In this document: positions 30,054 through 63,729 of the stretch, one piece after another
Layout: each line of letters opens with the position of its first letter
How positions within the stretch are numbered: position 1 is the first letter of the stretch
DNA from: a virus
Virus record (IMG/VR): IMGVR_UViG_3300021959_007960
Coordinates: 91,387-155,386 of that record
Reading direction: 5' to 3' (one strand)
Length of the DNA: 64,000 bases
Translations under genes and position numbers: made by a program
Notes under the pieces: generated by a model
What the model was told of the DNA's origin: nothing
Seen by the model: the letters and a program-made list of their open reading frames with translations, nothing else
Database searches by the model: none

Positions 30054-30094
30054 ATTCTATCCTATAGTATCGTCTTTGTCAACCACTATCTTTA
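30054..30094 (-). promoter_or_regulatory. Interleaved sigma-70 and sigma-28-type promoter
   Basis: TAAAGATA-N12-GACGATAC overlapping TTGACA-N17-TAGAAT. Confidence 0.75.
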
Positions 30095-30110
30095 CTTTTT
30101 TTAAAAAACT

Positions 30111-30190
30111 CGTAAGTCCTTGTCAGATAAAGACTTACGTTAAATAGTACTTTCTAAATAACGTAAGTCCTTTTGTAGTAACGAGTTAGC
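30111..30190. repeat. Two tandem 11-7-11 imperfect palindromes
   Basis: CGTAAGTCCTT-N7-AAAGACTTACG (30111-30139) and CGTAAGTCCTT-N7-AACGAGTTAGC (30162-30190). Confidence 0.7.
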
Positions 30191-30194
30191 TACT

Positions 30195-30383
30195 TTAATC
30201 TTCTTTTTTTGGCAACAATATACCTAATAGTAAGTATACCCAAAAGATAATACTACCAGAGGCAATAGCACCAAAAACAGTTAGTAGTCTAATAATAGTA
30301 ACATCAATGCCTGTGTAATCAGATAGACCAGCACAAACACCAAAAATCATACCGTCTTTTTTATTTTTCAATAAGTTACTCAT
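30195..30383 (-). CDS. PspC-domain membrane protein
   Basis: KKDGMIFGVCAGLSDYTGIDVTIIRL...YLLLGILLP. Confidence 0.9.
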   Translation of the reverse strand: MSNLLKNKKDGMIFGVCAGLSDYTGIDVTIIRLLTVFGAIASGSIIFWVYLLLGILLPKKED

Positions 30384-30687
30384 ATTTTTTTAACCACTCC
30401 GTAAAGTTATAAGGGGTAAAACCACGCAATTCACCAATCTTTTTATCGTTGTCAAAGATAAATGAAGTAGGATAAACTTTTATATGTAACTTATTTACTA
30501 ATTCAGGATGCTCGTCAATATCAATGTATTCTAAATCAAAATTCTTAATAATATCTGGATTATCTTTCATATACTGTTTTTGCTTAACACAGTATGGACA
30601 CCAATCTGCGCCTATAACAAGAAGGTCTTTGGCGTATGCTGTACTACAACTTAACAGTAGTAGAATTAATAATTTGAATAATTTCAT
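30376..30687 (-). CDS. Exported thioredoxin-like protein
   Basis: Signal peptide, ADWCPYC, cis-Pro YPT. Confidence 0.85.
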   Translation of the reverse strand: MKLFKLLILLLLSCSTAYAKDLLVIGADWCPYCVKQKQYMKDNPDIIKNFDLEYIDIDEHPELVNKLHIKVYPTSFIFDNDKKIGELRGFTPYNFTEWLKKYE

Positions 30688-30866
30688 TTGGAGGTATTCC
30701 TATTAGTAAATAATATTCATATAAGCTAAACATATATACACCCCCATAGATTATTGTTTATTTTCTGTCTTTTGCTAGATTAACAAAAAAACAAACTACA
30801 CTTAAATCTACAACAACTACGATCCACCATACACTTAAAACATCTAGTAAAGTATGATCCATCTTT

Positions 30867-31571
30867 TTAACTTTCTAGTACATAAGACCAGTAACGAGAG
30901 TCTTGCTTGTCTTGCAAGTCATCCCAATATACACATCTGGCAATATATGATGGTATTTTATTCTTACCACAATTTACACTCCAATGCTGTTCCATTTTTT
31001 TGTATTTTTCTGTACCTACTTTGCTCTTATTATAGCTTAGATGTTCCATGTTGTAAAGGCGAAGCTGATGAACATCTCCACATAAAACTCTTGCTTCATT
31101 AGGATGAATCATTTCTAAAGCAAAACTAACCTTAGCCATACCCAATCCAATAATCTTATCTACAATAGCATCACGTTTTTTGACATGGTATTTTTTAGTA
31201 GTAAGATAGAAATCTTTAGGATTTTTCCAAAACTGTTCACTGAAATTCCAAATATACTTTGTCCTGTTGTTATAAAGACCAACACCAGAATGTTTCAGTT
31301 TGTCTAAGAGCGTTTCTTGGTCGTCAATCCATTCTTCGTAGTTCTTAATGGCATTGTAGCCACGGCAATTCCCCTGCCAACTTGTATGAACAGAACAATA
31401 AGCAAACAAATAACGCCTAAAAATATCGCCGTGATTCTGTGGTCGTACACTCTCCCAGTACTCCTTATATGCTTTAATCTTATCTCTAGGAAATTCTTTA
31501 AAAAATTCATCAGCCTTACTTCTGCAATATGTCGTATTCTTTTCTGTTTTAGTTTCTGTTGCAATAACCAT
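30867..31571 (-). CDS. HhH DNA-glycosylase-fold protein
   Basis: FAYCSVHTSW, GLYNNR, IGLGMAKVSFALEM, CGDVH; start refined to ATG 31571. Confidence 0.55.
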   Translation of the reverse strand: MVIATETKTEKNTTYCRSKADEFFKEFPRDKIKAYKEYWESVRPQNHGDIFRRYLFAYCSVHTSWQGNCRGYNAIKNYEEWIDDQETLLDKLKHSGVGLYNNRTKYIWNFSEQFWKNPKDFYLTTKKYHVKKRDAIVDKIIGLGMAKVSFALEMIHPNEARVLCGDVHQLRLYNMEHLSYNKSKVGTEKYKKMEQHWSVNCGKNKIPSYIARCVYWDDLQDKQDSRYWSYVLES

Positions 31572-31609
31572 GATAGTCTCCAAAAGTTTCAAGTCCTGTG
31601 ATACATTCA

Positions 31610-31651
31610 ATTCTATACTATTGGTATCGTCTTGTCAAGGTGCAATCTTTA
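31610..31651 (-). promoter_or_regulatory. Interleaved sigma-70 and sigma-28-type promoter
   Basis: TAAAGATT-N12-GACGATAC overlapping TTGACA-N17-TAGAAT. Confidence 0.75.
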
Positions 31652-31660
31652 AAATATTTT

Positions 31661-32203
31661 CTACGGTTGTTGCATCATGTAACTGCTATCTCTGTAAGTT
31701 TTGATTAGTAAATTTCTTAAATCTGCAAATTCATCCACTGCTTGCACCACTCCGGGCCAAGCATTACTGTTGTAATCATGTCCGCAAATAAATCCTCCTG
31801 ATTTAATTTTTTTAGGCCAAGTTTCCAAATCTCTTTTTACTGTATCATAATCATGGTCCGCATCTATATAAACCATATCTATGCTATTGTCTTGTATTAT
31901 CTTAGCATATTGTTCAGATGCCTCAAACCATATTTTTGCTCTACTATATCTTAATCTTTGTTGTATATCCTCGTTCTCAAAAGGGTCAACACAGTGTAAT
32001 ATATTAACAAACGGAAAAGCAGATATAATTAAAGCTGACTCACCCCTATGAGAACCAATTTCAACACATTCTATTTTATCACTATCTTTCAGCGTATTGA
32101 TATCACACATCATTTGTATCAATCCAGATATTTGATTTCCGTTATTTTTATCCCAATCTGGAAAAAATCTCATACTTTTTATAGAAGTAGGATCATCTGT
32201 CAT
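31661..32203 (-). CDS. SAM methyltransferase (Methyltransf_24-like)
   Basis: VEIGSHRGES, VDPF, YIDADHDY, GGFICGHDY. Confidence 0.85.
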   Translation of the reverse strand: MTDDPTSIKSMRFFPDWDKNNGNQISGLIQMMCDINTLKDSDKIECVEIGSHRGESALIISAFPFVNILHCVDPFENEDIQQRLRYSRAKIWFEASEQYAKIIQDNSIDMVYIDADHDYDTVKRDLETWPKKIKSGGFICGHDYNSNAWPGVVQAVDEFADLRNLLIKTYRDSSYMMQQP

Positions 32204-32886
32204 TAGTGTAACCTCACTCTATCACATTCTCTAACATCATTATTATAGGATTCAATGTACTCCCACGCCAAACTATATCTAAAATCGTCGGAAGTATTTT
32301 CATAGCACCCATGTACTAAATTTATGTCAAACAGTACTGCATAAGGTGCTTTTAGTTCTAAGTCTAATATATCATATTTTCTAAGATGAGAATTGTCAAT
32401 CCATTTTACATACTTATTTATCTTACTTGTAATTTCATGTGGGAATATACCCTGTGTATGAGAGTTCTTTACTAATCTCAAACAACCGTTCTCTTTATTG
32501 GTGTCTGTTAGATATACAGCACAACTTAATATTTTTTTATTGTCACCGTTAAAATAATAATTGTCTTGGTGCATAAATGTTGATGTACCAGTTTTAGGTT
32601 GCATTGGGAAAAATTTACTTATGTAACAATCAAGAGTATCACTTGTTTGTATTATATTCTTTGCGTGAGCAACTAGAGTAGCATTGTTAGCCAAGTTTCT
32701 AAAGGCTTCATTGTTTGTACAGGCATAATTTATTTTGTTTAATTGTCCACGCTCATCCCATTCGTAATGTTTATTATTCTTGTTCTTCTGTGCTTGATTA
32801 TATAAGCCATCACAAGTATGTAATAATTCTTGATGTTCTTCTTTAGATAAGAAGTTTTCTATAACTAGGTATCCTTCATCCATCAT
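32203..32886 (-). CDS. PhyH-family 2OG-Fe(II) dioxygenase
   Basis: GYLVIENFLS, HQDNYY, ENGCL..SH, LVHG, R. Confidence 0.9.
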   Translation of the reverse strand: MMDEGYLVIENFLSKEEHQELLHTCDGLYNQAQKNKNNKHYEWDERGQLNKINYACTNNEAFRNLANNATLVAHAKNIIQTSDTLDCYISKFFPMQPKTGTSTFMHQDNYYFNGDNKKILSCAVYLTDTNKENGCLRLVKNSHTQGIFPHEITSKINKYVKWIDNSHLRKYDILDLELKAPYAVLFDINLVHGCYENTSDDFRYSLAWEYIESYNNDVRECDRVRLH

Positions 32887-33472
32887 AAGTATATCCCATT
32901 AATTCTATGGCTTTATAATCTTTTTCGTAAACCTTATCTATCAACTCTTTAGTATAATAATCTTTGTAGTCATACTTTTTATTTTCATTTAGATGTGGGA
33001 TTTTATTTGAATCTAAATTTATATTAAACCTATCAAAAAATTTTAATAATTCTTCTTTATAATTTTCAAATTTAGCTATGTAATCTACAGTCTTCTTGTA
33101 ATCTTTCGAGTACAACCAGTAAAATTGAGGTGGTTGATTGTCAATATAAAATTCCAAGGATTGGTTTTTTTTGAAATGCCTGTTGTGATAGAGCATAAGC
33201 GAAACTAATCTAGCCCAAGGGTTTCTAACAAAAGAAAAACTAAAATATGTATCTGGATCATAACCATCAATTTTCAAGTCGTATATAGCAGCAGTCAGGT
33301 TTGAGTGTTGTTTATACTTACAGGAATTATATTTTCCTGCAAAACTTAATTCTTCACATTCACGGAAACCATCCCTGTGCTGTGCCTTTGTTGCTAGACA
33401 TGCTCTAAAAGTTCTAGTACCAGTTTTAGGTATATCTATTGTAAAAAATTTATGATTATGTGAAACTAACAT
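32876..33472 (-). CDS. Sulfotransferase family 2
   Basis: IDIPKTGT, FVRNPWARLVS, KFEN. Confidence 0.85.
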   Translation of the reverse strand: MLVSHNHKFFTIDIPKTGTRTFRACLATKAQHRDGFRECEELSFAGKYNSCKYKQHSNLTAAIYDLKIDGYDPDTYFSFSFVRNPWARLVSLMLYHNRHFKKNQSLEFYIDNQPPQFYWLYSKDYKKTVDYIAKFENYKEELLKFFDRFNINLDSNKIPHLNENKKYDYKDYYTKELIDKVYEKDYKAIELMGYTYDG

Positions 33473-34742: not shown

Positions 34743-34744
34743 TA

Positions 34745-36403: not shown

Positions 36404-37723
36404 TTATACAGTTCTCATATCTCCATGTAGTATTTTAAATGTTGGAAACCTGAGACTAATACCACCTTCCTGATTCTTAGTCTCTTCAAAATACTGCACT
36501 GTTATAATTTTACCTAAGATAGCATCAGGGTTTTTGTAAAAGTCTTGTCTTTGTTCTATAGTAAACCCACTACCAACTTTGACAAGGTTATCTTTGTGTT
36601 TAATATAAACACAGGATAGCATTTCTTCTTCACATTCTTTACCGTCTAATGTGAGAGGAAACATACCCATTTCAGTGTCTATTACCTCATACTCGGAATC
36701 ATGGAAAGTTTTTACTTTAAGTAAATCTTTACTACGTTTACCTTTGTAGGTTACATTCTTACGCAACATAACACCTTCCCAACCATTGTTATCTGCTTTA
36801 GACACCCACTGTTGGAAATGGTCATCATCATTTACTATCTCCATTTCTAATACAGATAGGCAGGGACACCTATTATCTTCCATAGTAAACAATAGTTCTT
36901 TATATCTTTGATAAAGATTATCATTACTTTTCTTTGCCTTAAACTCATCTTGAGTCATCATATCAAAAATTTTATAAGAAGGATTCTTAATAGTATGATC
37001 TTTCTTGCGTAGTTGTTTCATAATACTCTGAAAATCTTCATTACCGTGTTCGTCAATCAAACACAGTTCTCCATCAAAAACTACATCAGTAAGCCCCAAA
37101 TCACTAATCCCATCAGCGACCACACCAAGAGTAAGGAACTCTTTTCCTGTGCGGGAATAGAAGGTAGTATTACCAAAATTATCAACAATAGCAAGACATC
37201 TAACACCATCCAGTTTCCTTGAAACAAACCACTCATCTTTCCACTCCACTAATTTAGGTTCATATTTTTCTGCAAGAGCAACACTGAACTCTGGTATAAA
37301 ATCAGGAATAACTTTATTTATAAGTTTTATACCAACCTTAGTTTTGAGGTCTTTATCTAAAATACAATAGACAAGTTCTTCTTGCTCTGGATTCTTATTG
37401 ATATAAGCATTAACTATTCTGATAGCATCATGCCCTGTATATCTACGAAGAGTTAAATCATTAAAGAGTTGACATAAACCATACCCCGGTTCACAATCTC
37501 CAAAGAATAAATCTGATCGCTTTTTAACTTGGCTACTTGTTAAGCCATACATAAGATAATCATTGTGTGCTAGATTCAATACATTTCTAGCATGAAGTTG
37601 ATCTCCATTATCTTCATCTTTACCTGCTTTGCAATACTTGGCTATAATTTCTTGTTTGGCAATCGTACCGCTGTTGTTACGCAGTTCGTCGATCATAGAC
37701 ATAACATATTCTGTGCTGTTCAT
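36404..37723 (-). CDS. ATP-dependent DNA ligase
   Basis: KLDGVR, FDGE, EGVMLR, KVK, VGSGF, SLRFPTF. Confidence 0.95.
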   Translation of the reverse strand: MNSTEYVMSMIDELRNNSGTIAKQEIIAKYCKAGKDEDNGDQLHARNVLNLAHNDYLMYGLTSSQVKKRSDLFFGDCEPGYGLCQLFNDLTLRRYTGHDAIRIVNAYINKNPEQEELVYCILDKDLKTKVGIKLINKVIPDFIPEFSVALAEKYEPKLVEWKDEWFVSRKLDGVRCLAIVDNFGNTTFYSRTGKEFLTLGVVADGISDLGLTDVVFDGELCLIDEHGNEDFQSIMKQLRKKDHTIKNPSYKIFDMMTQDEFKAKKSNDNLYQRYKELLFTMEDNRCPCLSVLEMEIVNDDDHFQQWVSKADNNGWEGVMLRKNVTYKGKRSKDLLKVKTFHDSEYEVIDTEMGMFPLTLDGKECEEEMLSCVYIKHKDNLVKVGSGFTIEQRQDFYKNPDAILGKIITVQYFEETKNQEGGISLRFPTFKILHGDMRTV

Positions 37724-37759: not shown

Positions 37760-37798
37760 AGTATATCTTATATCGTCATGTCTGTCAAGTAAACTTTA
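37760..37798 (-). promoter_or_regulatory. Interleaved sigma-70 and sigma-28-type promoter (ligase)
   Basis: TAAAGTTT-N13-GACGATAT overlapping TTGACA-N17-TATACT. Confidence 0.7.
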
Positions 37799-38903: not shown

Positions 38904-38926
38904 AATTCAATCCTAAGTGGAGGCGA
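38404..38926. repeat. 13-bp direct repeat (tmRNA 3' end) flanking the HNH gene
   Basis: TAAGTGGAGGCGA at 38404-38416 and 38914-38926. Confidence 0.85.
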
Positions 38927-39257
38927 GGGGAATTGAACCCCTGTCCAGCATAAATTCCATATAAACTTCTACATCGTTAGTCTGTTGTTATTAATACTAC
39001 AGACAAAACTGTTTGTCTTTCCAACGTCAAAGTGATTACACTTATCGACCTTCTTAGTTCAGGTAGGACAACCCTATCCGATTATCGGAGTCAGCATAAT
39101 TGGGTAAAAAGGTTTATGCAACCCCTCTCACCTAAGCGGCGAGTGCTAATACAGAAGTATCGGCAATTAAAATGTGATCTATTTTTAAACTGGCCTTTAG
39201 ATCAACCAGTCGATGCAACCTATACTTCTATTCACCTGTCGAAACCAGTACGCCCCC
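38918..39257 (-). ncRNA. ssrA: tmRNA
   Basis: 5' GGGGGCGTACTGGTTTCGAC; 3' GACAGGGGTTCAATTCCCCTCGCCTCCA; G3.U70 pair; tag ORF ADTSVLALAA* at 39132-39164. Confidence 0.95.
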
Positions 39258-39523: not shown

Positions 39524-39697
39524 TTATATTATTCTTTCTCCCAAAGGTTGTGTAAAAACTTCAATGTTCTGTCTAATTATAACAGGTGCTAGTTGTTTGT
39601 CAAGTCTTTTGATTTGAGAATGTTGAACAAAATTAGTAGCTATGCTTAACATTAATAAGCCCCATAATATCCATGTAGCAGGATGTATTTTATCCAT
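39524..39697 (-). CDS. Small membrane protein
   Basis: TM segment WILWGLLMLSIA. Confidence 0.55.
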   Translation of the reverse strand: MDKIHPATWILWGLLMLSIATNFVQHSQIKRLDKQLAPVIIRQNIEVFTQPLGERII

Positions 39698-39698
39698 T

Positions 39699-40745
39699 CT
39701 ATACACTCTGATCAAAATGTGTTCTATTTACTATATTAAATTCTGCACACTTACTCATATCTTTCAAGCAAGTAGCACCTATATATGCACAACAACTTCT
39801 AAGTCCACCTAAAATATCTTCGATAACTTTATTAACATCTCCCTTGTATGGTATGTTTTTAATTCTGCCTTCACTTGCTCTATAGTCTTTTACCCCGCCG
39901 TATTTTTGTTGTGCCTCATAAGATGACATGCCATAAAATTGTAAAGATAGTTTCTTACCGTATTTCATTTCCCAAGTACCTTCGCATTGTTCTGTTCCTG
40001 CAAGCATACCTCCAAGCATTACAAAATCAGCACCAGCAGCAAATGCTTTACATACATCGGCAGGATTTCTACAACCACCATCGGCACAAATTAGTCCTAA
40101 TTTACCTTTTCCATTTTTCAATCCATGTGCAGCATGTGAACATTCTATAATAGTAGATAATTGAGGATAACCTATACCTGTTTTAAGTCTAGTAGTACAC
40201 GCACTTCCCGGCCCAATACCTACCTTAACAATATCAACACCTCCATGCAGAATGATTTCTTGTACCATTTCTGGAGTACATACATTACCTGCCATAATAA
40301 TTGGAGAATCACCAAAGTCTTTTCTCATTCTTGAGCAGAAATTGACAAAATCATCCGTATAGCCATTAGCCACATCAATACAAATATTAGGAACTCTATT
40401 AGTTTTATCTTGGTATCGTTGTATTCTTTCATAATCTTTATCTTTTATACCTATACTTAACCATTGGTATATATCATTTGTAATAACATCTACATATTGA
40501 TGATCTTGATAGTGTTTATGTAGACAAGTAGGCATGTTATGTTTTTGCAAAGCATTAGACATACTGACTGTACCAGTAGTATCCATATTTGCTGCAAAAA
40601 CAGGTACACCTTTCCATTCTTTTGATGAATGATAAAAAATATAATTTCTTTGTAAATTAACAGACGATCTGGAGGCAGTTTTACTTCTGTGAGGAACTAA
40701 TAAAACATCATCAAAATCTAATTTAGGATCAGTATTTACTTTCAT
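39699..40745 (-). CDS. guaC: GMP reductase
   Basis: LDFDDVLL.P, AANMDTTGT, LHKHY, IDVANGY, KVGIGPGSACTTR, GYPQLS, YRASEG. Confidence 0.95.
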   Translation of the reverse strand: MKVNTDPKLDFDDVLLVPHRSKTASRSSVNLQRNYIFYHSSKEWKGVPVFAANMDTTGTVSMSNALQKHNMPTCLHKHYQDHQYVDVITNDIYQWLSIGIKDKDYERIQRYQDKTNRVPNICIDVANGYTDDFVNFCSRMRKDFGDSPIIMAGNVCTPEMVQEIILHGGVDIVKVGIGPGSACTTRLKTGIGYPQLSTIIECSHAAHGLKNGKGKLGLICADGGCRNPADVCKAFAAGADFVMLGGMLAGTEQCEGTWEMKYGKKLSLQFYGMSSYEAQQKYGGVKDYRASEGRIKNIPYKGDVNKVIEDILGGLRSCCAYIGATCLKDMSKCAEFNIVNRTHFDQSV

Positions 40746-41992: not shown

Positions 41993-42069
41993 CGTATCTC
42001 CTGTGTAAGAACCAAATTGTTTTATCTATTATACTATAGTTATCGGCGTTTGTCAAGTAAATTCTTAAA

Positions 42070-48463: not shown

Positions 48464-48574
48464 GTCAATCCTTTTCTATCTTTTATGCCACTCTATGTAA
48501 GACGCTACAAAAAACCATACTGTTGCAAGCACGAACATGATGTGCAGTATTGTTCCTAGTGTTTCCATAATCAT

Positions 48575-48614
48575 AGTATACCATAGTTATCGGCATTGTC
48601 AAGTGCAAACTTTA
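48575..48614 (-). promoter_or_regulatory. Interleaved sigma-70 and sigma-28-type promoter
   Basis: TAAAGTTT-N12-GCCGATAA (both FliA octamers exact) overlapping TTGACA-N16-TATACT. Confidence 0.8.
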
Positions 48615-50830: not shown

Positions 50831-51409
50831 TCACTCTAATCGTCCACTCATCTCTGTCCATATCATAAGGTCTGCTTGAGCCAGTGTCAAGCCGGGATAA
50901 TGTGTTTCCATTAAGTATTTACATAATCCTGCATACTGAGCATATTTCTCTGGATTCTGTGGAGTATTTTTAGGAGCCTCTTTGACACCACACTTTTCCC
51001 TCATCCATCTCAATATGTGAGTATCTAACACAACCTCATCACAAAATTCTCTGGTATGTAATAAAAAGAATCTAGCAGTTTTTGGCCCAACACCATAAAC
51101 ATCCATCAAATCTTCTCTGGTGCAGGTTTTAAGGTCTAATTTTGAAGAGAAATATAAAGCCTTGCGTATCCTGTCGTACTGACCTGTCTTATGTGCCTTC
51201 AAATAATTGTGAAGTTCTGATAGCTTGAGGCTTTTAATGAACTCAAATGGAGTCATATCTCCCCTGTCTTTGAGTAATTTTGTAACCAACCTAGAAGTTG
51301 TATCACTATTTTTACCAGCGACAAGGATACAGAATATCCAGAATGACTGTAGTTCTACATCTGTGCGATTGTAGTTGGTAATATTTTTAGGGTCTATCAA
51401 AGTTTCCAT
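50831..51409 (-). CDS. HhH-GPD/Ogg-like DNA glycosylase-fold protein
   Basis: FCILVAG, LMDVYGVGPKTARFFL, VLDTHILRW, ADLMIW. Confidence 0.7.
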   Translation of the reverse strand: METLIDPKNITNYNRTDVELQSFWIFCILVAGKNSDTTSRLVTKLLKDRGDMTPFEFIKSLKLSELHNYLKAHKTGQYDRIRKALYFSSKLDLKTCTREDLMDVYGVGPKTARFFLLHTREFCDEVVLDTHILRWMREKCGVKEAPKNTPQNPEKYAQYAGLCKYLMETHYPGLTLAQADLMIWTEMSGRLE

Positions 51410-51434
51410 TATGTTCTCCAAAAGCGTTTCCTCC

Positions 51435-51473
51435 AGTATAACATATTATCGTCTTGTGTCAACAGAAACTTTA
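51435..51473 (-). promoter_or_regulatory. Interleaved sigma-70 and sigma-28-type promoter
   Basis: TAAAGTTT-N12-GACGATAA overlapping TTGACA-N16-TATACT. Confidence 0.8.
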
Positions 51474-51942: not shown

Positions 51943-53232
51943 TTATGCTATGATATTGTGTTGAATATTACCAAATACGTCAGTCAGTCTAAAATCTCTC
52001 CCGCTATATCTATATGTTAGTTTTGTGTGGTCAAGTCCCATCAAGTGTAATATTGTAGCATGTAAATCGTGCATATCCATACTGTCTACAGCCTTATGTC
52101 CAAAATCATCTGTAGAACCATATCTCATACCTCCTTTTACTCCACCACCTGCCATCCACATACTAAACCCACCATTATTATGATCTCTGCCTGTTGCTCC
52201 TTCTTTTATACCGGGAGTTCTACCAAATTCACTTCCGAATAATATAATTGTATCTTCAAATAACCCACAATCTTTTAAATCCTGTATTAATCCAGCAATA
52301 GGTTTGTCAATAGCAGTTGTATTCTTTTTTAGATTATCATTAATATTTTGGTGCATATCCCAACCACCATGACCAATCTCTACAAATCTTACTCCTGCCT
52401 CACTAAATTTCTTAGCTAATAAACATTGTTTGCCAAATTTAGCCGTAGCTTTATCATTGATGCCATACTTCTCTAATGTTTGTATAGATTCTTTTGATAT
52501 ATCAATAGTATTAGGAACACTTGTCTGCATCCTAAAAGCCAACTCATAACTCTCAATCAGTCCTTCTAGCCTACTATTCTCACCATTACCTAATTGATAG
52601 TTATTTAAGTCTCTAAGGAAATTCAAGTTCTCTCTTTGTCTGTTTAAATCTATTGGACTTTGAAGATTAGGGATAGGGCTTTTACTACCAGCATTAATAG
52701 CAGTACCCTGATATACTGCCGGTAAGAAAGAACTACCATAATTATCTGGGCCAATATTTGCGTCTATAGTTATAAACCCCGGCAACTCTTTATTCTCTGT
52801 ACCTAATCCATACAATAACCAACTGCCCATACTAGGTCTACTGAACTGAAAATTACCTGTGTGTAATAAACTTCGTGCTTGATTATGATTACCTGTTTTA
52901 CTCTTCATGCCATTCAATAAACATAAACTATCTGCGTGTTTACGAAGGTGTGAGAAGTTCTCACTAATTTCTATACCACTATCTCCTGCTGGAGTTAAAG
53001 GCACTCCCGGCTTTACAATCTTTCTGCCTTTACTCACAGGATCATCTGTACCATCTTTCTCTACCATTAAAGGTTTATAATCAAAAGTATCCGTATGAGT
53101 CATACCCCCATTCATATACATAAATATAACTCTTTTATTACTTTGCATCATCTCTTCTGCAAGTAATCCTTTTAGTGCCAGCATTCCAAAACCTGCACTA
53201 CTAGCTTGTAATAAATTTCTTCTATTTAACAT
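51943..53232 (-). CDS. DUF1501 protein (Tat-exported, planctomycete family)
   Basis: NRRNLL Tat motif; FMYMNGGMTHTDTFDYKP, RPSMGSW, GGWDMH, SEFGRTP, GRDH, DLHATILHLMGLDH. Confidence 0.95.
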   Translation of the reverse strand: MLNRRNLLQASSAGFGMLALKGLLAEEMMQSNKRVIFMYMNGGMTHTDTFDYKPLMVEKDGTDDPVSKGRKIVKPGVPLTPAGDSGIEISENFSHLRKHADSLCLLNGMKSKTGNHNQARSLLHTGNFQFSRPSMGSWLLYGLGTENKELPGFITIDANIGPDNYGSSFLPAVYQGTAINAGSKSPIPNLQSPIDLNRQRENLNFLRDLNNYQLGNGENSRLEGLIESYELAFRMQTSVPNTIDISKESIQTLEKYGINDKATAKFGKQCLLAKKFSEAGVRFVEIGHGGWDMHQNINDNLKKNTTAIDKPIAGLIQDLKDCGLFEDTIILFGSEFGRTPGIKEGATGRDHNNGGFSMWMAGGGVKGGMRYGSTDDFGHKAVDSMDMHDLHATILHLMGLDHTKLTYRYSGRDFRLTDVFGNIQHNIIA

Positions 53233-55591
53233 TACGAAATTCTCCTGTGCAGATTAATATTTGGGTTAAGTATGCAAGATTATTATTATCTTTCTCTATA
53301 AAATCTATAGATGCTTCAGTCTCAATATTGGTAGGTAAACGGCCTAAAAACTTTAAAAATATTTCATTGACATTGTTACGGTATAATATTTTCGGCATAG
53401 TTTTACTCATCTTTTTATTTCGCTCAAGTAATATTTGTGCTTGTTCTTGTGCTAGTGATATGATCTTAGGATTATTCATTAAGAATAAAGCCTGTGTAGA
53501 TACTGTTGTGACACTTCTCTCAGCATTAAGCAAACTATTGTCTGGTCTATCAAATATGTCCAGTACCTCAATCTTATTATCTCTTAATGATGGAATATAA
53601 ATTGATCTTGCTCTTGTCTCACCAATATACTTTCTTAACTCTTTGCTAGAATTTTTTATGTCTGTCTGAAAATCACTAATGTTCTTATGCGATCCGTCTA
53701 GCTTGCCTGATACAAATAATAATGAATCTCTAATTTGCTCTGCTTCTAATCTCTTCTCGTTCATTCTCCAGAAATAAACATTGTCAGGATCAATCTCATA
53801 ATTATTTTTATCAAAATTACTACTACGTCTGTAAGCATTACTCATAACAATAGTTTTAATAAGTCTTTTATTTGATAGCCTACCAGTAACAAACTTGGTA
53901 GATAAATAGTTCATCAGTTTAAGATTAGTAGGTTCTCCACCTAGTATTCCAAAATTATCAAAACTATCTAATATACCCTTACCAAACAAATGTCTCCATA
54001 CTCTATTTACATAAACCCTATAAGTTAATGGATTAGTTTTATGTGTTATCCATTCTGCCAGTTCATATCGTCCACTTGTATTATCAAAGTTAAGATTAGG
54101 TCTATCACTAAATATCTCTGGCAATCTTCTTGGTACTTCATCACCCAGATTATTAACCTCACCCCTAATTGCCAGTTTAACTTCTGTCATCTTTTCTTTA
54201 TCTTTGACAGACATTACAGGCTGTAAATGTTCTAGGTATTTTAAATATTCATCAGATAACTCAGCTTTTGCTTCTTCTAATCTCTTTTGTCTCTTACCTA
54301 ATTCTCTGTTTAATTGATCTTCTGTTACTCTTTTATTCCATGTTTTAATAGATTCTATTTGTATCTCTAAGTTTTTAATGTCACACAGGAGGAACCATTC
54401 CTTTACCTTTTTCTTTTTGTATAAATCTTCTGTCTCTTCTGTTATCAGATATTCATAGTCTCCAAGATAACCAGTATTATTATTACCTCTATACAAACCA
54501 TCCATATTTCTTGTATTATTAAACACTCCAGCAACACCATAATAGTCTTGCTGAGAAAATGGGTCAAACTTATGATCGTGACATCTTGCACAACTTAAAG
54601 TCATACCCAGAAAACCTCTGGTGATAGCATCTATCTGGTCATCGTTACGATCTGCCTCAAACTGTCTAATCTGTGCCTGTATATTTTTTGTACCTATTGT
54701 TAAAAAGCCTGTAGCTATCCTGTTGTTGTTATATTCTTCATAACTTTTATGTGGTAATAAATCACCAGCTATTTGTTCTATAATAAATTGATCGTATGGT
54801 TTATCTTGATTAAAACTATCTATAACATAATCCCTATATCTCCAAGCATAAGGACTAATTAAATTTCTATCTTGTCCAGATGATTCTGCATATCTAGCTA
54901 CATCTAACCAATGTCTCCCCCATTTCTCTCCAAAACCTTCGTCCTCTAATAAACTATCTACTAATTTTTCATATTTATTTTCCGAAGTATCATTTATATA
55001 CCCTTTAATTTGCTCAATACTTGGTGGCAAACCAATAATATCAAAGTAAAGTCTACGAATAATGGTATAGTCATCTGCTATTTCTACGGGTTTTAATTTA
55101 TTTTTTAATATTTCTACATTAAGTATAGCATCTATTTCTGTACCATCGTCATATTTAGCTACAGGAGGTCTTGTTACCTTCTTAAATGCCCAGAAATTTC
55201 TAGCTTGTCTTAATTCTACTGCCCTGTTCTCAGGTTTGTATCTTGGGTCAGGCATACCCATTTTAATCCATTGTCTAAAATTATTTACAATTTCTTCGCT
55301 CAAAGGATTATCTGGTGGCATATCCCCAGACTCTATATAATCTAATAATAAACTCTCGTCTATTTTACCGGGAACAACTGATGGGCCAGAATCTCCACCA
55401 TTTAATATACCTTGTCTAGTATCTAAAGATAATCCACCCTTTACGTCTTTTGAGGTAGAAGAATGACAAGAATAGCATTGTGTAGTTAAGACGTTCCTGA
55501 TATTATTTTCAAAAAATTTAATACCAGCATCTTGAGATAGTGCTATATTAGAATATAGAACAAAACTAACTAGAAGTATTTTTTTTAACAT
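53222..55591 (-). CDS. PSCyt1 cytochrome c + DUF1549 (PSCyt2) + DUF1553 (PSD1) protein
   Basis: Signal peptide; CYSCH; GRHWLDVARYAES; CARCHDHKFDP; RVYVNRVWRHLFG; RLEAEQIRDS; QALFLMN. Confidence 0.95.
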   Translation of the reverse strand: MLKKILLVSFVLYSNIALSQDAGIKFFENNIRNVLTTQCYSCHSSTSKDVKGGLSLDTRQGILNGGDSGPSVVPGKIDESLLLDYIESGDMPPDNPLSEEIVNNFRQWIKMGMPDPRYKPENRAVELRQARNFWAFKKVTRPPVAKYDDGTEIDAILNVEILKNKLKPVEIADDYTIIRRLYFDIIGLPPSIEQIKGYINDTSENKYEKLVDSLLEDEGFGEKWGRHWLDVARYAESSGQDRNLISPYAWRYRDYVIDSFNQDKPYDQFIIEQIAGDLLPHKSYEEYNNNRIATGFLTIGTKNIQAQIRQFEADRNDDQIDAITRGFLGMTLSCARCHDHKFDPFSQQDYYGVAGVFNNTRNMDGLYRGNNNTGYLGDYEYLITEETEDLYKKKKVKEWFLLCDIKNLEIQIESIKTWNKRVTEDQLNRELGKRQKRLEEAKAELSDEYLKYLEHLQPVMSVKDKEKMTEVKLAIRGEVNNLGDEVPRRLPEIFSDRPNLNFDNTSGRYELAEWITHKTNPLTYRVYVNRVWRHLFGKGILDSFDNFGILGGEPTNLKLMNYLSTKFVTGRLSNKRLIKTIVMSNAYRRSSNFDKNNYEIDPDNVYFWRMNEKRLEAEQIRDSLLFVSGKLDGSHKNISDFQTDIKNSSKELRKYIGETRARSIYIPSLRDNKIEVLDIFDRPDNSLLNAERSVTTVSTQALFLMNNPKIISLAQEQAQILLERNKKMSKTMPKILYRNNVNEIFLKFLGRLPTNIETEASIDFIEKDNNNLAYLTQILICTGEFRNVK

Positions 55592-56126: not shown

Positions 56127-57188
56127 AACTCCATTTTAGTCATAGGAGATATTGTGTCTATATATGAGCATATAGGAGTATTACTATCATTATAATTAAC
56201 CTTATATACTTCTATAGCACATAAATCTTCTGTTGTTGGAGACTCTTTAATCTGAAAATGTATTGTCTTTCTCATATTCCTACCCATAAGTAAAGGTAAG
56301 ATATGTTACACCTATTTTCTAACTTCGCACGTTTCTAGTACTTCCTTGAGTAAATCTAATGACACTTTTAAAAAATGGTCTTTATGTCCCTGATTAAACT
56401 CATGCTTATGTTGCTCGTATTCTTCAAGAGCAACCTTGATTCTAACCTCTAGGTCTTTAATGATGCCGTCGTACATTCTAATCCTCCAGAACTATAAAAC
56501 TGTCTAATACCTCATACTTGACCACAACACAATCTTTTTCGTCATATTTAAATTTGAATAGGAAATACTTAGCTATTCTTTTCAATATGATACTTATGAA
56601 AGATCGGTCTAAATTGTCTGCTTCCATATCTATAATTGCAGTAATTAATATTTTCTTTCTCATTGTTGATTTGATTTAATTGTGGGTTTAATTACCATTA
56701 ATTCAATTCAATTTACACTTTTCGTGGGAATCACGCCAAATAATGTCCTATCAATAATATGTAAATTCTTTGCTTCTTTACTGTCAATATACATTAGATT
56801 CTTATCTAAATGATCATGTAAGACTTTGCGTAATAGCTTGATTTCCCTGACTGTGAGTAATACGTTTTTATACATTTTTCACCTAAAAAATAACGATTTC
56901 TACCAATATACCTATTACCATCCATTATAGCATAAACACTAGGAGTGTCAATAGTATCGACTACCAGAATCCACTGACTTTAGACTTTTCCTTTTTTGCT
57001 AATTTATGTCGTCGCGGCAAAATAAGTGATTAAAATAAAATTTGGGGCTAATTAGCTACAAAATATGGTGCAGAAGGATATATTATGATGTATATAGAAT
57101 ATAATAACTGCTATTTGATACTATTATGGAATATAACTGCATGGTTTCTATAGGAATGTATATGGTGCAGGGGATAATAGTAATAATT

Positions 57189-58457: not shown

Positions 58458-58622
58458 ATCTTTTCTCCTTTGACTACTAAGTATACCATACACATCGTCA
58501 TTAGTCAACCCCTGACTTTAGGAAATCACTGACTACCTACTATAGCCCGAAACCGATTAGTTAAGATAGTACACATTTTATATACATACTTATATAGGGG
58601 GGTTAAACAAGTTTATTTATAC

Positions 58623-58684: not shown

Positions 58685-59632
58685 TTATAGAGCGTTGGCG
58701 TATTCTGAAGCCAGTGCCAATGCCCTGTTATTAGAAGTGCCGTTTTGACCAAACCACAGGCTTTCCATGCGGTTGTTGATATTACGACCCTTGCTGTAAT
58801 TGAGGTACTCGTTGAAGCCATTATAAGCAGCCCACCAAGTGCCACGAACTCCAGCAATATCTTGCTTAGGCCCATGAATCGTATGTAGAATCTCATCAAT
58901 CGTATTTTTGGTACGAGTTTTGAGGTCAAGATCATGAGTCCTATCGACATTCAGCAGGGTCTTGACGTATTTGCGAACGTCTGCCTGATTGAAGTCTCGA
59001 CTAGCAAGAAATCGGAACTGTTCAGCAGTAGCCTCAAACTGTGCATTGATATTGTCCATAATATCTCGGACGTTATCAAGGTTGGTCTGGGCACTTTTCG
59101 TATGTCGAATCCGCAGCAGATTGCTCTCTTTGTGAGAGTGGGCAAAAGCTAGGGTATTGACACAAACAACACGGATTGGGGTATAGCCTACACGAATAGC
59201 GGTTGTACCATCGTGACTATTTGATAGCAGAATAAATTTCTGTACCTCATCACCTTTGACAATTTCGCTAGGGTCACGGTTGAGTTGAGCGAGCGCCCAT
59301 ACTTTTTGACCGTTACTTAGCGAACCACCTGTATGCAGGCTACACTCACCAGCGTCGACGAATGGCTGAAACCATTCAAAGGCATCTTTATTCTGAAGTG
59401 GCACATACCTTGGGCCTACCACTCCTAGAATACTACCATCACTTTTGCGATAGGTAGCTTTTGCAGGAACATCATAACCGTCTTTGGTTACAAGATCCTT
59501 TACGCCAACTTCCCAATCCAGACCGGACTTCTCGATGGCCTCACTGATCGTTGGTGCTTCTTCCAACTTCTCACCAAGACCATGCCAAGGTTCTGCTCCG
59601 GTGTAAAACATTGATTCAACATTAGCAGCCAT
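58685..59632 (-). CDS. DUF932/DUF945 phage-plasmid protein
   Basis: PWHGLG, LGVVGPRY.PLQN, GSL..G.KVW, NSHDG, TPIRVVCVNTL, RHT, GTWWAAYNGFNEY. Confidence 0.9.
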   Translation of the reverse strand: MAANVESMFYTGAEPWHGLGEKLEEAPTISEAIEKSGLDWEVGVKDLVTKDGYDVPAKATYRKSDGSILGVVGPRYVPLQNKDAFEWFQPFVDAGECSLHTGGSLSNGQKVWALAQLNRDPSEIVKGDEVQKFILLSNSHDGTTAIRVGYTPIRVVCVNTLAFAHSHKESNLLRIRHTKSAQTNLDNVRDIMDNINAQFEATAEQFRFLASRDFNQADVRKYVKTLLNVDRTHDLDLKTRTKNTIDEILHTIHGPKQDIAGVRGTWWAAYNGFNEYLNYSKGRNINNRMESLWFGQNGTSNNRALALASEYANAL

Positions 59633-59671: not shown

Positions 59672-59711
59672 AGTATATCATATATATCGTCATTGTCAAC
59701 CAAAATCTTTA
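59672..59711 (-). promoter_or_regulatory. Interleaved sigma-70 and sigma-28-type promoter
   Basis: TAAAGATT-N12-GACGATAT overlapping TTGACA-N16-TATACT. Confidence 0.75.
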
Positions 59712-59719
59712 GAATTTTT

Positions 59720-59778
59720 GCTGGCTTTACCATAAAGACCAAACTGGGTGGTTAGGCTAAGACAAATAAACATGTTTA
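59720..59778. repeat. Intergenic repeat, copy A
   Basis: GCTGGCTTTACCATAA...ACAAATAAACATGTTTA; copies at 62765 and 63730. Confidence 0.85.
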
Positions 59779-59854
59779 TTTTTACACAAAAAACCCGCCA
59801 CAGGTCCACAAGGAAATTATCCCGGTATGCGACCTGCGACGGGCTCTTTATAGT

Positions 59855-60489: not shown

Positions 60490-60561
60490 TAGCCCCGGCG
60501 AGAATCGAACTCACATCGACGGTTTAGAAGACCGTTGTTCTATCCGTTGAACTACGAGGCC
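60490..60561 (-). tRNA. tRNA-Arg(UCU), CCA not encoded
   Basis: GGCCTCG/CGGGGCT acceptor; ACGGT-CTTCTAA-ACCGT anticodon arm; GTGAG-TTCGATT-CTCGC T-arm. Confidence 0.93.
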
Positions 60562-60619
60562 AAAAGTCAGAGCCGCAGTCTTGGATATCCCCATTGACGC
60601 TGCGGCCCTGACCCTGACA

Positions 60620-60922
60620 TCATACACCCGGAAGCAAACCGTCTGCCTTGCCTGCTTCTGTAATAATAGTGGCAGACTTACCATCTTCAACAATCTTCGG
60701 ATTGTGAGCATCGCCTGCCTGTTTGACTGTCACCCCAGTCATTTTTGCACGCCATACTTTGTATCCATGCTCGCTGTACTGCTTGATACCAGCAGGCTTC
60801 ACAATAGATACTGCCTCCTGATGATTGTCTTTACAAAACAAAGAAAGACCTGTCTTGACATCTTCAACATCGAGATCGTCAGCTACCATATCAACTGTAA
60901 AAGAATACTTTTTCATCATCAT
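60620..60922 (-). CDS. Hypothetical protein
   Basis: GGAG RBS; dual promoter at 60976-61016. Confidence 0.65.
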   Translation of the reverse strand: MMMKKYSFTVDMVADDLDVEDVKTGLSLFCKDNHQEAVSIVKPAGIKQYSEHGYKVWRAKMTGVTVKQAGDAHNPKIVEDGKSATIITEAGKADGLLPGV

Positions 60923-61018
60923 TCTCCAATCGGAACCAAAACAACTAAGAAGAACCGTTCTCCATTAGTAATATCATTATACCATATATTATCGACCTGT
61001 CAACTAAAAAACTTTAGA

Positions 61019-61180
61019 TTATTTTCTATGATCTCTAAAGAATTCAAGACGAACACCAACATTCATTCTACCATTAATAGGCTGTTGATTCAAGTCCAGA
61101 GTTTTATTACAAGTCAATGAACATTTGCTAGTAGTCACACAACCAGAACAAAACAGTAAAATTATTAGTAAATATCTCAT
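61019..61180 (-). CDS. Small putative lipoprotein
   Basis: Not in the track; MRYLLIILLFCSGC lipobox-like sequence; directly behind a sigma-28-type-only site at 61188-61215. Confidence 0.55.
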   Translation of the reverse strand: MRYLLIILLFCSGCVTTSKCSLTCNKTLDLNQQPINGRMNVGVRLEFFRDHRK

Positions 61181-61466
61181 ACTACTATTATCGTCCTTTT
61201 AGCTGCAAAACTTTATTTTGACTGACTGCGACCATCCAGACTTATCTTATTATATTAGATAGAACAAACTGGCGTCTATACGATGTTGGTCCAATCTTCC
61301 CCGGCCTAGCCGGAAGGTATAGAAGTCGTTTACAGACTACCTGCGAACAGGTCACCAGTTGTTTATATTATAGGACTTAGGCATTACTCGTACTAGAGCA
61401 ATTCTTTCCCGTATACCTGTCAGGCTGCCAAGGTGGTATACGCCCTATCCATCTTAATGTACGGCA

Positions 61467-61572
61467 GTGGTCGTCAGGACTTGCACCTGATAAGTCGTCC
61501 TTGCGTCACTATATTTGCAGACTCAAATAACGTGATGCCGGTCTGTAACGCCTAGGCTTCTATGCCCGCCAC
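61467..61572 (-). ncRNA. tRNA-like ncRNA of unknown family
   Basis: GTGG/CCAC closing stem, GGC-ATAGAA-GCC arm, GCGTTAC/GTGACGC arm, TCAGG-TGCAAGT-CCTGA T-like arm; starts at the predicted TSS of the promoter at 61579-61619. Confidence 0.6.
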
Positions 61573-61649
61573 ATTATCATTATACAATATATATCGGTCT
61601 CTGTCAACAATATTCTTTAATTTTATTTTTAAACATGTTTATTCTGCCC

Positions 61650-61907
61650 TCATTCCTCAAAATCTTTATCACGAGATTCGTTCAAGATGTGATAGCATTC
61701 TTCCAGTATATCCTCCGTTGCCCACACAGTTGTTTTCTTATCTGCACTAATATAGTCCTTACAACTACGCTCATCTACATATACATGTTCGTCTATCAGT
61801 TCGCTTCCTGTCATATAGTCTAAAAACATTTTTATAACTATCTCTTTTTTATTTAGATCCGTGTTAAATACTTTTCTAAAATTACCAGACGCTATATAGA
61901 CTTTCAT
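61650..61907 (-). CDS. Hypothetical protein
   Basis: ATGA overlap with the GP88-like gene. Confidence 0.65.
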   Translation of the reverse strand: MKVYIASGNFRKVFNTDLNKKEIVIKMFLDYMTGSELIDEHVYVDERSCKDYISADKKTTVWATEDILEECYHILNESRDKDFEE

Positions 61908-62677
61908 ACTGCTGTCTCCTTCTTGAGAATTTTTAGTGCTTCCGCTGCTTTGCTACCCTTTGGCTGTACGCCATGAATCAGTAGGGCAAAATCTTGGTTG
62001 GTCTTGGTTGGATCACAAGCATGAGAATCGTCGTGGTCAATTTCCAGACCTAACTCCTCTGCCTCTGCTACACTGAACACAACCTTAGCAGACCGTAGAC
62101 CATGCTCTGCAATCAAATGATCGTCACGACCACCGTATGATGCCGTCAATACTAGATTTCCGGGGACAAGGCTGCGACTACGCACCCAATACGTTAGCGA
62201 CTTAGTATAAGCATAGAATAGTACAGTAGGATTGCGTTCTGCGACTTTGATCCATGCCATGAAATACTTGTGACTGAACATATCACCAGACACATGAATA
62301 CGAACTACTCGGGCGTCCTTGGGTAATGCTGCACACAATCCGTCTGCCATAGCGTCACTTGTTTCCAGACTATGTATAGCGTCGTGATTACGCTTGCGAC
62401 TTTTGTATGTATTGGTGAACAATACTTCTTGACTAGCAGAGAAGCAACGGAATTTTGTGTGAGGCCCGTCCTTAATTCTGCGACTACCATCTGCCTGTTC
62501 TTCTGCCTGAGACTTGCAGTTGTGGGCGAAAGGACAGTCTACTCCCGATAAAATATCGAAAGAATAAACTTTGGCAGTAGACCGTCCTATCTTCTGACCC
62601 AACCACCGCTTGAGCACAGTTGTTGCGAGCTTGTAAAGTTTTTTGAGTTTAGTATTGGCGGCTGAAAACTTGAGCAT
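61904..62677 (-). CDS. GP88-family (radical-SAM-like) phage protein
   Basis: CPFAHNC...CFSAS, RIHVSGDMFS, FYAYTKS; start refined to ATG 62677. Confidence 0.8.
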   Translation of the reverse strand: MLKFSAANTKLKKLYKLATTVLKRWLGQKIGRSTAKVYSFDILSGVDCPFAHNCKSQAEEQADGSRRIKDGPHTKFRCFSASQEVLFTNTYKSRKRNHDAIHSLETSDAMADGLCAALPKDARVVRIHVSGDMFSHKYFMAWIKVAERNPTVLFYAYTKSLTYWVRSRSLVPGNLVLTASYGGRDDHLIAEHGLRSAKVVFSVAEAEELGLEIDHDDSHACDPTKTNQDFALLIHGVQPKGSKAAEALKILKKETAV

Positions 62678-62764
62678 ATCGTTGTCTCCTGTGGTTATGC
62701 TTTCATTATACCATAGTATCGTCATATGTCAACTATAAACTTCAATAAATTTTGCAGTTTGTTT

Positions 62765-62827
62765 GCTGGCTTTACCATAATTACCGATCCGGAAGGATAG
62801 GGTAAGACAAATAAATAAACATGTTTA
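62765..62827. repeat. Intergenic repeat, copy B
   Basis: GCTGGCTTTACCATAA...ACAAATAAATAAACATGTTTA. Confidence 0.85.
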
Positions 62828-62844
62828 ATTTTTATATCTACACT

Positions 62845-62878
62845 AAAAAACCCCGCCACCCATTGCTGAGTGACGGGG
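62845..62878 (-). terminator. Intrinsic terminator
   Basis: CCCCGTCAC/GTGGCGGGG stem followed by T6. Confidence 0.7.
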
Positions 62879-62904
62879 CAATCGACACACCACCACGGAG
62901 AATC

Positions 62905-63285
62905 TTATGTTGCAAGCAATCGTCCGAACAAAGGTTTGCGGCAATTCACTGCACGTTCGCAGTAAAACTGTCGATACTCGCCATCTTCGACTTGACATGT
63001 TACCAAGTGATTGGTACGTTCGAAGTCTGGATCTTTTTTGCGATAGTTTGAAGTACGATTCATTATTTCGATCTGTCTGTCAGAAAGTCTGACTACAGGC
63101 TCTACCACCTTTGCTTTGTGACGAATGCGTTCGCCAGTAAGTGGTTGTAAGTACTCGAAACTAAAAACCTCGCCTTGCTTTGCATCGCATAGACTAGCAT
63201 CTCTACCATAGAGACTTAAGACAACAGCAAAAGCAAGAAGACAACCGATCATCAACACTGTAGTGAAAAGAAAGTAATCGTTCAT
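62905..63285 (-). CDS. Membrane-anchored hypothetical protein
   Basis: N-terminal TM segment; sigma-70 promoter at 63324-63352. Confidence 0.7.
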   Translation of the reverse strand: MNDYFLFTTVLMIGCLLAFAVVLSLYGRDASLCDAKQGEVFSFEYLQPLTGERIRHKAKVVEPVVRLSDRQIEIMNRTSNYRKKDPDFERTNHLVTCQVEDGEYRQFYCERAVNCRKPLFGRLLAT

Positions 63286-63348
63286 AGTAAAACTCCGTAA
63301 GTGTAAAAACCAAACCTAAAACCATTATACCATATGCTCGACACCGTG

Positions 63349-63651
63349 TCAAGCCTTAATCGTCATTCCATCCTCAAACGCTGCAATGCCATTTACATAC
63401 CATTCCCAATTTTCTTGGCGTACATAAAAAGGACTGAAACGATTGATTCTGTCTTTTGTTGTGGGCGTTTTGTGTCCACCATGTCTTAGCGTTACGCTGT
63501 CGTCATCATGAATAGTCACAACGTCCGTACTGTACAACATGAAAGCTACACTACCATCTGGCTTGATTCTTGCAGTGGTATTGTTTGCTACCTTGCGTTG
63601 CATTCTGTTATTCTTTCCCAATACTAATTTTGTGGCTTCTGCGTGTGTCAT
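63349..63651 (-). CDS. Conserved phage hypothetical protein
   Basis: RKVANNT, TLRHGGHKTPTTKDRINRF, VRQENWEWYV. Confidence 0.75.
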   Translation of the reverse strand: MTHAEATKLVLGKNNRMQRKVANNTTARIKPDGSVAFMLYSTDVVTIHDDDSVTLRHGGHKTPTTKDRINRFSPFYVRQENWEWYVNGIAAFEDGMTIKA

Positions 63652-63729
63652 AAGTATTTTCTCCTTACTTGTTATATCGACATTCTACCAGATAATCTTT
63701 AGCTGTCAATAGAAAAAAAATATTTTTGT

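Follow-up and report, generated by a model that had tools for sequence, protein, structure and literature searches.

A sigma-28-like two-box element interleaved with the sigma-70 early promoters of a phage family with probable planctomycete hosts

Can a phage have its early genes started by the flagellar sigma factor of its host as well as by the housekeeping one? The question is raised by a stretch of 64,000 nucleotides (nt) of the IMG/VR virus record IMGVR_UViG_3300021959_007960 (positions 91,387 to 155,386; hereafter the window), part of the genome of a large uncultured marine phage (G+C content about 33%) in which nearly every gene lies on the minus strand. A preliminary description had named eleven minus-strand sigma-70 promoters in the window, each overlapping a second motif, TAAAG-N17/18-CGAT, that resembled the consensus of sigma-28 (FliA), the flagellar sigma factor, and had proposed host FliA or, alternatively, a phage-encoded sigma factor as the reader of this motif. 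We find that the two boxes form an element of their own, which exists independently of the sigma-70 promoters and is conserved among related phages. Its sequence strongly indicates that it is a promoter, and host FliA is the reader that we favor.

All eleven sigma-70 promoters were recovered on the minus strand with the pattern TTGAC(A/T)-N16-18-TAnnnT (30054-30082, 31610-31638, 37760-37788, 48573-48602, 51435-51462, 58480-58508, 59672-59699, 60976-61003, 61579-61607, 62705-62732 and 63682-63709), and the overlap with TAAAG-N17/18-CGAT is true of every one of them, including the site whose upstream box had been read as TGAAG and indeed has this sequence at 62740-62744. The sigma-70 pattern has 26 minus-strand matches in the window, most of them near consensus, and six on the plus strand under a slightly stricter pattern; promoters of the form TTGACA-N16-18-TATAAT lie in sense orientation upstream of genes. 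Searched as TAAAG-N16-19-CGATA, the two-box element occurs 15 times in the window, as against 0.55 ± 0.8 times in 100 dinucleotide-preserving shuffles of it (highest count 4), so that the enrichment over background on which the preliminary description depended is real. All 15 matches are on the minus strand, which is the gene strand.

For comparison, four relatives were taken whole from the numerous ones in IMG/VR, whose rIIA is 54-97% identical to that of the window: G001 (166 kb), G002 (157 kb), G003 (160 kb) and G004 (195 kb; IMGVR_UViG_3300050343_000285). The DNA that can be aligned between these mosaic genomes and the window amounts to only 12-19 kb, and they therefore serve as largely independent samples. 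Related genomes again carry the element preferentially on the gene strand (20 versus 3, 8 versus 0, 9 versus 0, 20 versus 2 and 18 versus 3 on the opposite strand), and reversed-pattern controls in the relatives gave 0-3 matches. When the gap k of TAAAG-Nk-CGATA was varied from 8 to 30 in the five genomes (the window and the four relatives), 35 sites were counted for a gap of 17 and 32 for one of 18, with 0-4 at any other value; the 16-nt gap, with two sites, is at background level. With sites near TTGAC removed, nine and four remained at k=17 and k=18. The 67 gene-strand sites that we analysed fall into 60 independent sequence contexts (at most 80% alike), and 55 of them have an open reading frame (ORF) start led by a Shine-Dalgarno sequence within 250 nt (median 45 nt). 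Orthologous promoters have invariant boxes and differ in the bases between them. Given this variable intervening sequence and the unrelated contexts, shared descent does not explain the element.

The two boxes keep their place relative to each other, and not relative to the -35 hexamer of the sigma-70 promoter. When both boxes were sought over a wide range around every TTGAC-N16-18-TAnnnT promoter, TAAAG was found to start 7-14 nt ahead of TTGACA (23 nt at one site) and CGATA 9-15 nt past it (7 nt at one site). Although each offset shifts by up to 8 nt, their sum is 22 or 23 in 45 of the 46 promoters concerned (r = -0.86; variance 1.45 for the sum, against 5.3 and 3.0 for its parts). Across the 67 sites the element takes five registers relative to the sigma-70 promoter. 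TTGACA lies within the box gap in register A (41 sites), 7-8 nt upstream of TAAAG with the sigma-70 -10 hexamer inside the gap in register B (seven sites), and immediately after TAAAG in register C (four sites); register D is a tandem arrangement (two sites), and in register E (13 sites) the element stands alone. Some of the stand-alone sites are chance matches and others are conserved ahead of genes, such as the TAAAG...GACGATA of G001 (68722-68748) and G004 (5536-5562), which AAGGAGG-ATG follows at a distance of about 20 nt in either genome. The claim of an independent element, which had been based on three geometries in the window, is thereby borne out: the internal gap is fixed, the registers vary, and the geometries themselves are all present, at 63675-63701 (within a sigma-70 spacer), at 56955-56982 (tandem) and at 61189-61215 (alone).

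The consensus of the 67 sites comprises an A-rich stretch, cTAAAG(a/t)Tt, the gap and tG(a/c/t)CGATA(a/t), where TAAAG was fixed by the search pattern and the flanking bases were read from the sites. A G stands two bases before CGATA in 52 of the 67 sites, and an A or T directly follows CGATA in 52 as well; upstream-box variants in the window are TGAAG and TTAAG. The E. coli sigma-28 consensus is TAAAGTTT-n11-GCCGATAA (PMC2859248), and the E. coli FliA sites mapped by chromatin immunoprecipitation sequencing, given as 28-mers, all read TAAAG-N16-CGATAA (PMC4183435). Both boxes and the G at -2 of the phage element agree with this type of promoter position by position, and the element lies in sense orientation shortly upstream of genes. 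The likeness to the E. coli consensus stated earlier thus holds for the boxes but not for the gap, which in that notation is N12 or N13 in the phage, one to two bases longer. The best match in the window is the sequence at 48587-48614, which reads TAAAGTTT-N12-GCCGATAA as had been claimed.

Whether such a promoter could be read by the host depends on who the host is. Gene content points to the Planctomycetota, as the preliminary description had guessed: on the minus strand the window encodes a protein with prepilin-type N-methylation and DUF1559 domains (27483-28460), a planctomycete hallmark, and at 51943-55591 a PSCyt1/PSCyt2/PSD1 gene (53222-55591) together with a DUF1501 gene (51943-53232). 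The nearest genome matches of this pair are in Planctomycetota (39-48% identity; Singulisphaera, Gemmata and Kuenenia at 40-48%), the 5' end of the DUF1559 gene shares 70-92% DNA identity with many planctomycete genes, and the tRNA-Leu of the phage reaches 91% identity with a planctomycete transfer RNA. A BLAST comparison of 19 kb of the window with 401 planctomycete genomes gave no match resembling a CRISPR spacer and returned only this tRNA-Leu and the conserved DUF1559 N-terminus; a phage reference collection had no match for an 8-kb stretch of the early region, nor for the 789-amino-acid PSCyt/PSD1 protein. The host is probably a planctomycete. FliA scores above the family cut-off in all eight planctomycete genomes searched for it (240-271 bits versus 190), and two genomes of Verrucomicrobiota gave weak FliA matches only.

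Planctomycete flagellar genes carry the same boxes as the phage. TAAAG-N16-CCGATAA was found upstream of flagellin genes in four planctomycete genomes, and the five promoters of this kind all have N16. Genome-wide, matches to TAAAG-Nk-CCGATAA in 61 planctomycete genomes peak at total lengths of 27, 28 and 29 (22, 32 and 22 versus about 10 elsewhere, among the 150 listed of 226 matches, in a tally made by hand; a surplus at the upper gap limit is perhaps an artefact of the search tool). The 28-mers have a gap of 17 nt, as in the phage, and when the genes that follow ten of them were annotated, these included flgM and fliD in the genome G045 and an OmpA/MotB-like gene in another planctomycete; one 28-mer (in G045) and one 29-mer lie about 100-150 nt upstream of flagellin genes. 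We had considered the spacing as a reason to exclude FliA when only the N16 examples were at hand, but N17 at flgM, fliD and fliC and N18 at another fliC overturned this argument. With N16, N17 and N18 all present at planctomycete flagellar genes, the phage gap is within the planctomycete sigma-28 range, and the comparison that the preliminary description had called for came out in favor of its proposal. Two flagellin loci (L093 and L096) have a low G+C content near that of the phage, 37% in G045 (a genome of 2.1 Mb) and 33% in G030 (6.8 Mb). Both genomes encode FliA and flagellin, and in G045 the boxes are 17 nt apart at flgM, at fliD and at one fliC. Judging from these features, lineages of Planctomycetota of the G045 and G030 type are candidate hosts.

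We therefore favor host FliA because planctomycete flagellar promoters match the element, a tblastn search of the window and G001-G004 yielded no FliA homologue, and the recognition helix of the phage sigma factor is of the RpoD type (see below). On this evidence the element would be a sigma-28-class promoter superimposed on, or placed beside, sigma-70 early promoters and read by the host FliA holoenzyme, a proposal that we rate as evenly balanced. Host FliA, as advanced in the preliminary description, is thus preferred to a phage sigma factor, while the identity of the reader is deduced and unproven. In such a system, strong early promoters would be covered or flanked by a complete sigma-28-class promoter served by planctomycete FliA and core RNA polymerase, and in a cell with free FliA, for example a flagellated swarmer, holoenzymes with sigma-70 and with sigma-28 could both start the same early transcripts. 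Two starts about 10-14 nt apart would be expected in the common register, with the sigma-28 start falling within the -10 hexamer of the sigma-70 promoter. Right after infection the phage would have more polymerase at its disposal, and later transcription would be handed to phage factors, namely a two-domain sigma factor (2141-2725) and a gp55-like factor, the latter probably acting at GGTGTA(T/A)(A/T)A. It is tempting to go one step further and to see here a widespread family of large marine phages, probably infecting planctomycetes, that carries a host flagellar-sigma promoter in nearly every strong early promoter and whose infection success is tied to the motile swarmer stage; for this wider picture our confidence stays just short of even.

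Phage sigma factors that take over the second temporal class of genes are well known, for instance gp28 of SPO1 and gp55 of T4. The element might accordingly be a "middle" promoter for a sigma factor of the phage itself, with the gene at 2141-2725 as the obvious candidate, by which early genes would stay on after displacement of host sigma-70. We consider this unlikely. The phage genomes contain two kinds of sigma-like genes, and only this one, here called sig1 (minus strand), has both region 2 and region 4, so that it is the sole phage candidate able to read a two-box promoter. Orthologues are present in G002, G003 and G004, and the gene of G003 stands behind an early-type TTGACA...TATAAT promoter, so sig1 could be made early; the avoidance of the canonical 16-nt gap by the phage would also suit a reader other than FliA. 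The protein itself points elsewhere. It belongs to a virus-only family, with virus-only nearest clusters, and scores 20.2 bits against the FliA/WhiG model TIGR02479, below the cut-off of 189.6; among sigma factors of solved structure its best relatives are RpoS and RpoD, with FliA weaker, and in tblastn searches its C-terminal half is nearer to RpoD (E values of 1e-6 to 1e-7) than to FliA (about 0.01). Aligned with FliA and RpoD from five planctomycete genomes, the region 4.2 recognition helix of sig1 reads VT(R/K)EA(I/V)RQ (VTREAIRQ in the window), whereas planctomycete RpoD has VTRERVRQ, with the canonical recognition residues, and planctomycete FliA has (T/S)ESR(V/I)(S/C)Q. The residues R584, E585 and R588 of RpoD determine -35 specificity (PMC2613000), and sig1 keeps this Arg, Glu and Arg, without the FliA pattern. 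It is thus more likely to read a TTGACA-like -35 box than TAAAG, and may redirect the polymerase to TTGACA-type promoters with a different -10. Moreover, sig1 is only 37-40% identical between phages whose motif is unchanged (their rIIA being 57% identical to that of the window in G003 and 94% in G002), and the sites are confined to early-gene regions, nearly always on top of sigma-70 promoters and not before a distinct set of middle genes. The alternative of a phage sigma factor raised in the preliminary description is disfavored on account of the RpoD-type helix and the low conservation.

Three further observations on sig1 were set aside. Its apparent absence from G001, which has 20 motif sites, does not count, since the contig ends fall exactly where G002 carries the sig1 block. 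In G004 the sig1 orthologue is spread over three reading frames (e.g., 104900-105900) and could be taken for a pseudogene, but several other genes of this genome, including rIIA, also align only partially; the record probably contains indel errors, and apparent pseudogenes in it are not to be trusted. Autoregulation of the sigma gene through a TAAAG-N17-CGATA at 2911-2937 was likewise rejected, as this match lies inside a conserved ORF and tracks the protein sequence (VKY...DDDK). Together with two other matches within coding sequence (29301-29326 and 40414-40440) it is probably due to chance or to coding constraints. Region 2 of sig1 contains a unique and strongly conserved sequence, KTQYSYRNQCAIWAIQTY.

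Alternatively, the boxes could be the bipartite operator of a phage or host DNA-binding protein that represses or activates the early promoters, the likeness to sigma-28 promoters being coincidental. In every register the element overlaps the -35, the spacer, the -10 or the start site of the sigma-70 promoter and thus one of its core parts, as would be expected of a repressor's binding site, the box-to-box distance of 22-23 bp is close to two helical turns, and the palindrome TATACT/AGTATACT shared at the -10 position resembles the site of a regulator. Yet the boxes are dissimilar and form neither a palindrome nor a direct repeat, and together with the G at -2 they fit the sigma-28 consensus (PMC2859248) as well as real planctomycete flgM, fliD and fliC promoters. 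The orientation of the element strictly follows the genes, and stand-alone copies such as the pair in G001 and G004 precede ribosome-binding sites by 20-40 nt and have no sigma-70 promoter that they could control. An operator therefore seems improbable to us.

That the boxes merely belong to a single extended sigma-70 promoter (with TAAAG serving as UP-element or as a contact of the C-terminal domain of the alpha subunit, and CGATA as a spacer signal), or the relic of a promoter duplication, agrees with the A-rich DNA upstream of TAAAG and with its position at about -47 to -43 in the commonest register, but is very improbable, as the box distance is kept while the pair slides by up to 8 nt in the overlapping registers and by 20-40 nt in B and D, the boxes lie downstream of the -35 in register B and occur without sigma-70 boxes in the stand-alone sites, and about half of the strong sigma-70 promoters lack them.

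Several points weigh against FliA of a planctomycete as the reader. The phage gap of N17/N18 avoids the N16 that is the rule in E. coli and the commonest spacing at planctomycete flagellin genes. FliA is usually bound by FlgM and becomes free only once the flagella are completed. Flagellin was present in only 33 of 61 sampled planctomycete genomes, and the true host might thus lack FliA; the host assignment itself comes from gene content only, the genome of this phage is covered in part (by the 64,000 nt of the window), and the argument from the sig1 helix is carried over from other sigma factors. Finally, the -10 hexamer of the dual promoters is TATACT in 32 of 51 cases (e.g., 59672-59677, 51435-51440, 48575-48580 and 37760-37765) versus five of 55 plain sigma-70 promoters, which favor TATAAT, and this TATACT is often part of the palindrome AGTATACT. 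The bias could reflect the sigma-28 start region, the site of a dimeric regulator or a -10 preferred by sig1, and hints at a further regulator outside the FliA model.

Among the dual promoters of the window, all on the minus strand, is the site at 63675-63709 (register B). Here TTGACA (63704-63709) is followed by TAAAG (63697-63701), the -10 TAGAAT (63682-63687) and CGATA (63675-63679), so that each sigma-28-like box lies downstream of its sigma-70 counterpart; G001, G003 and G004 preserve this arrangement at the orthologous promoter with a different spacer sequence. Register A is represented at 62705-62744, upstream of a GP88-family gene (61904-62725), with the upstream box TGAAG and GACGATA within the sigma-70 spacer; at 61579-61619, where TAAAG-N18-CGATA is combined with TTGACA-N17-TATAAT; at 60976-61016; at 59672-59711, with the -10 TATACT and upstream of a DUF932 gene (58685-59632); and at 58480-58520, with TTGACT and TATACT and with CGATG in place of CGATA as the downstream end of the sigma-28-like part (58494-58520). 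The stand-alone TAAAG-N17-CGATA at 61189-61215 is without sigma-70 boxes. In the tandem of register D (56924-56982) the sigma-28-like element at 56955-56982 comes first and the sigma-70 promoter at 56924-56951 follows, its TTGACA at 56951; a similar arrangement is present in G001 at 63660-63687. Further promoters of register A are located at 51435-51473, upstream of an HhH glycosylase-like gene (50831-51421); at 48573-48614, the site with the best sigma-28 match; at 37760-37798, upstream of the DNA ligase gene (36404-37723); and at 31610-31651 and 30054-30094. Two dual promoters are additional to those described earlier. One is of register A (42028-42068), with the upstream box TTAAG and GCCGATAA in the spacer. 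The other (23700-23739) lies inside the 3' end of rIIA (23553-26198) and upstream of rIIB (22689-23528), and its sequence is kept in G001, G002 and G004, there too inside conserved coding sequence. Besides rIIA, the window encodes a clamp-loader-like protein, the DNA ligase, a GMP reductase, many glycosyltransferases, two transfer RNAs, one transfer-messenger RNA (tmRNA) and the small sigma factor at 2141-2725.

Other repeated signals accompany these promoters. GGTGTAT is the most enriched 7-mer upstream of genes (47 upstream regions versus 5.6 expected) and is part of a single-box motif without a conserved -35, GGTGTA(T/A)(A/T)A, which occurs in the window (minus strand, at 3236, 4457, 20841, 26588, 30742, 38122, 47554, 55639 and 56312) and in G001-G004. 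A region-2-only sigma factor resembling T4 gp55 is encoded outside the window (e.g., G001 87791-88261), and the motif is probably a late promoter read by this putative factor. An intergenic cassette of about 80 nt, made up of the palindrome TAAACATGTTTA and then ...TTTATGGTAAAGCCAGCAAAAA, is repeated just upstream of several early promoters (59702-59780, 62747-62829 and 63725-63794; also 58604-58617 and 61630-61643), and a similar GATAAAGTCAGCCAAAAAA occurs in G003; it could be a terminator, an insulator or a small RNA. A leader motif, (T)ATCACAGGA(C), is enriched between promoter and start codon (for example around 31590, 26230 and 37740 in the window), with TCACAGG in 16 upstream regions versus 2.7 expected. 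The tmRNA (38915-39257, minus strand) is full-length and one-piece (Rfam, 114.7 bits) with the tag ADTSVLALAA as predicted by ARAGORN; a plain sigma-70 promoter (39576-39603) precedes it by about 320 nt.

Phage early transcription is thought to use the housekeeping sigma factor of the host, or polymerases and sigma factors brought by the phage. We know of no phage whose early genes are started by flagellar-sigma polymerase as well, and planctomycete phages are, to our knowledge, almost unknown; our search of the literature returned no report of the use of FliA or sigma-28 by a phage, nor of planctomycete phages of this kind. What appears to be new is a phage family with sigma-70 and sigma-28 promoters interleaved at dozens of early promoters, and the comparisons with planctomycete promoters and with the recognition helices of sigma factors tilt the balance toward host FliA as the probable reader. 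If this is true, it would be the first demonstrated use of host sigma-28 by a phage, infection would be linked to a particular state of the host cell, the flagellated stage, and the promoters would be a rare natural case of two complete promoters within the same 40-50 bp in several registers. Such interleaved promoters would be useful for studying the competition of holoenzymes at one site and for promoter design, and the element may serve as a sequence marker for the phage family and as a clue to its host, a flagellated lineage encoding FliA.

Among known systems, the early and middle promoters of T4 (MotA/AsiA) and SPO1 (gp28) are alike in that two promoter specificities span two physiological or temporal states, and the phage studied here also has the genes rIIA and rIIB, a putative late factor of the gp55 type and single-box promoters that are probably late. 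The second specificity of T4 and SPO1 is, however, made by phage proteins and their promoters are unlike those of host alternative sigma factors, whereas the second promoter described here copies a host alternative-sigma consensus and no matching phage protein was found. Sigma-28 promoters, and operons served by both sigma-70 and sigma-28, are textbook knowledge. The class 3 flagellar promoters (FliA in E. coli and Salmonella, SigD in Bacillus, sigma-28 in Chlamydia and planctomycetes) share with the phage element TAAAG(T/A)TT, G-N-CGATA(A/T), a fixed gap and strict orientation, and planctomycete flgM, fliD and fliC share its 17-nt gap as well; the phage copies differ in that they stand before early and not flagellar genes, have a gap of 17-18 and not 16 nt, and are nearly all interleaved with sigma-70 promoters. 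The closest parallel for one transcription unit served by two holoenzymes are the E. coli operons fliDST, flgKL and flgMN, which have both FlhDC/sigma-70 and FliA promoters, and competition between sigma-70 and sigma-28 at closely spaced promoters has been discussed (PMC4183435). In these few operons, however, the two promoters are separate and activator-dependent, whereas the boxes of the phage are interleaved, in at least three registers and at dozens of promoters.

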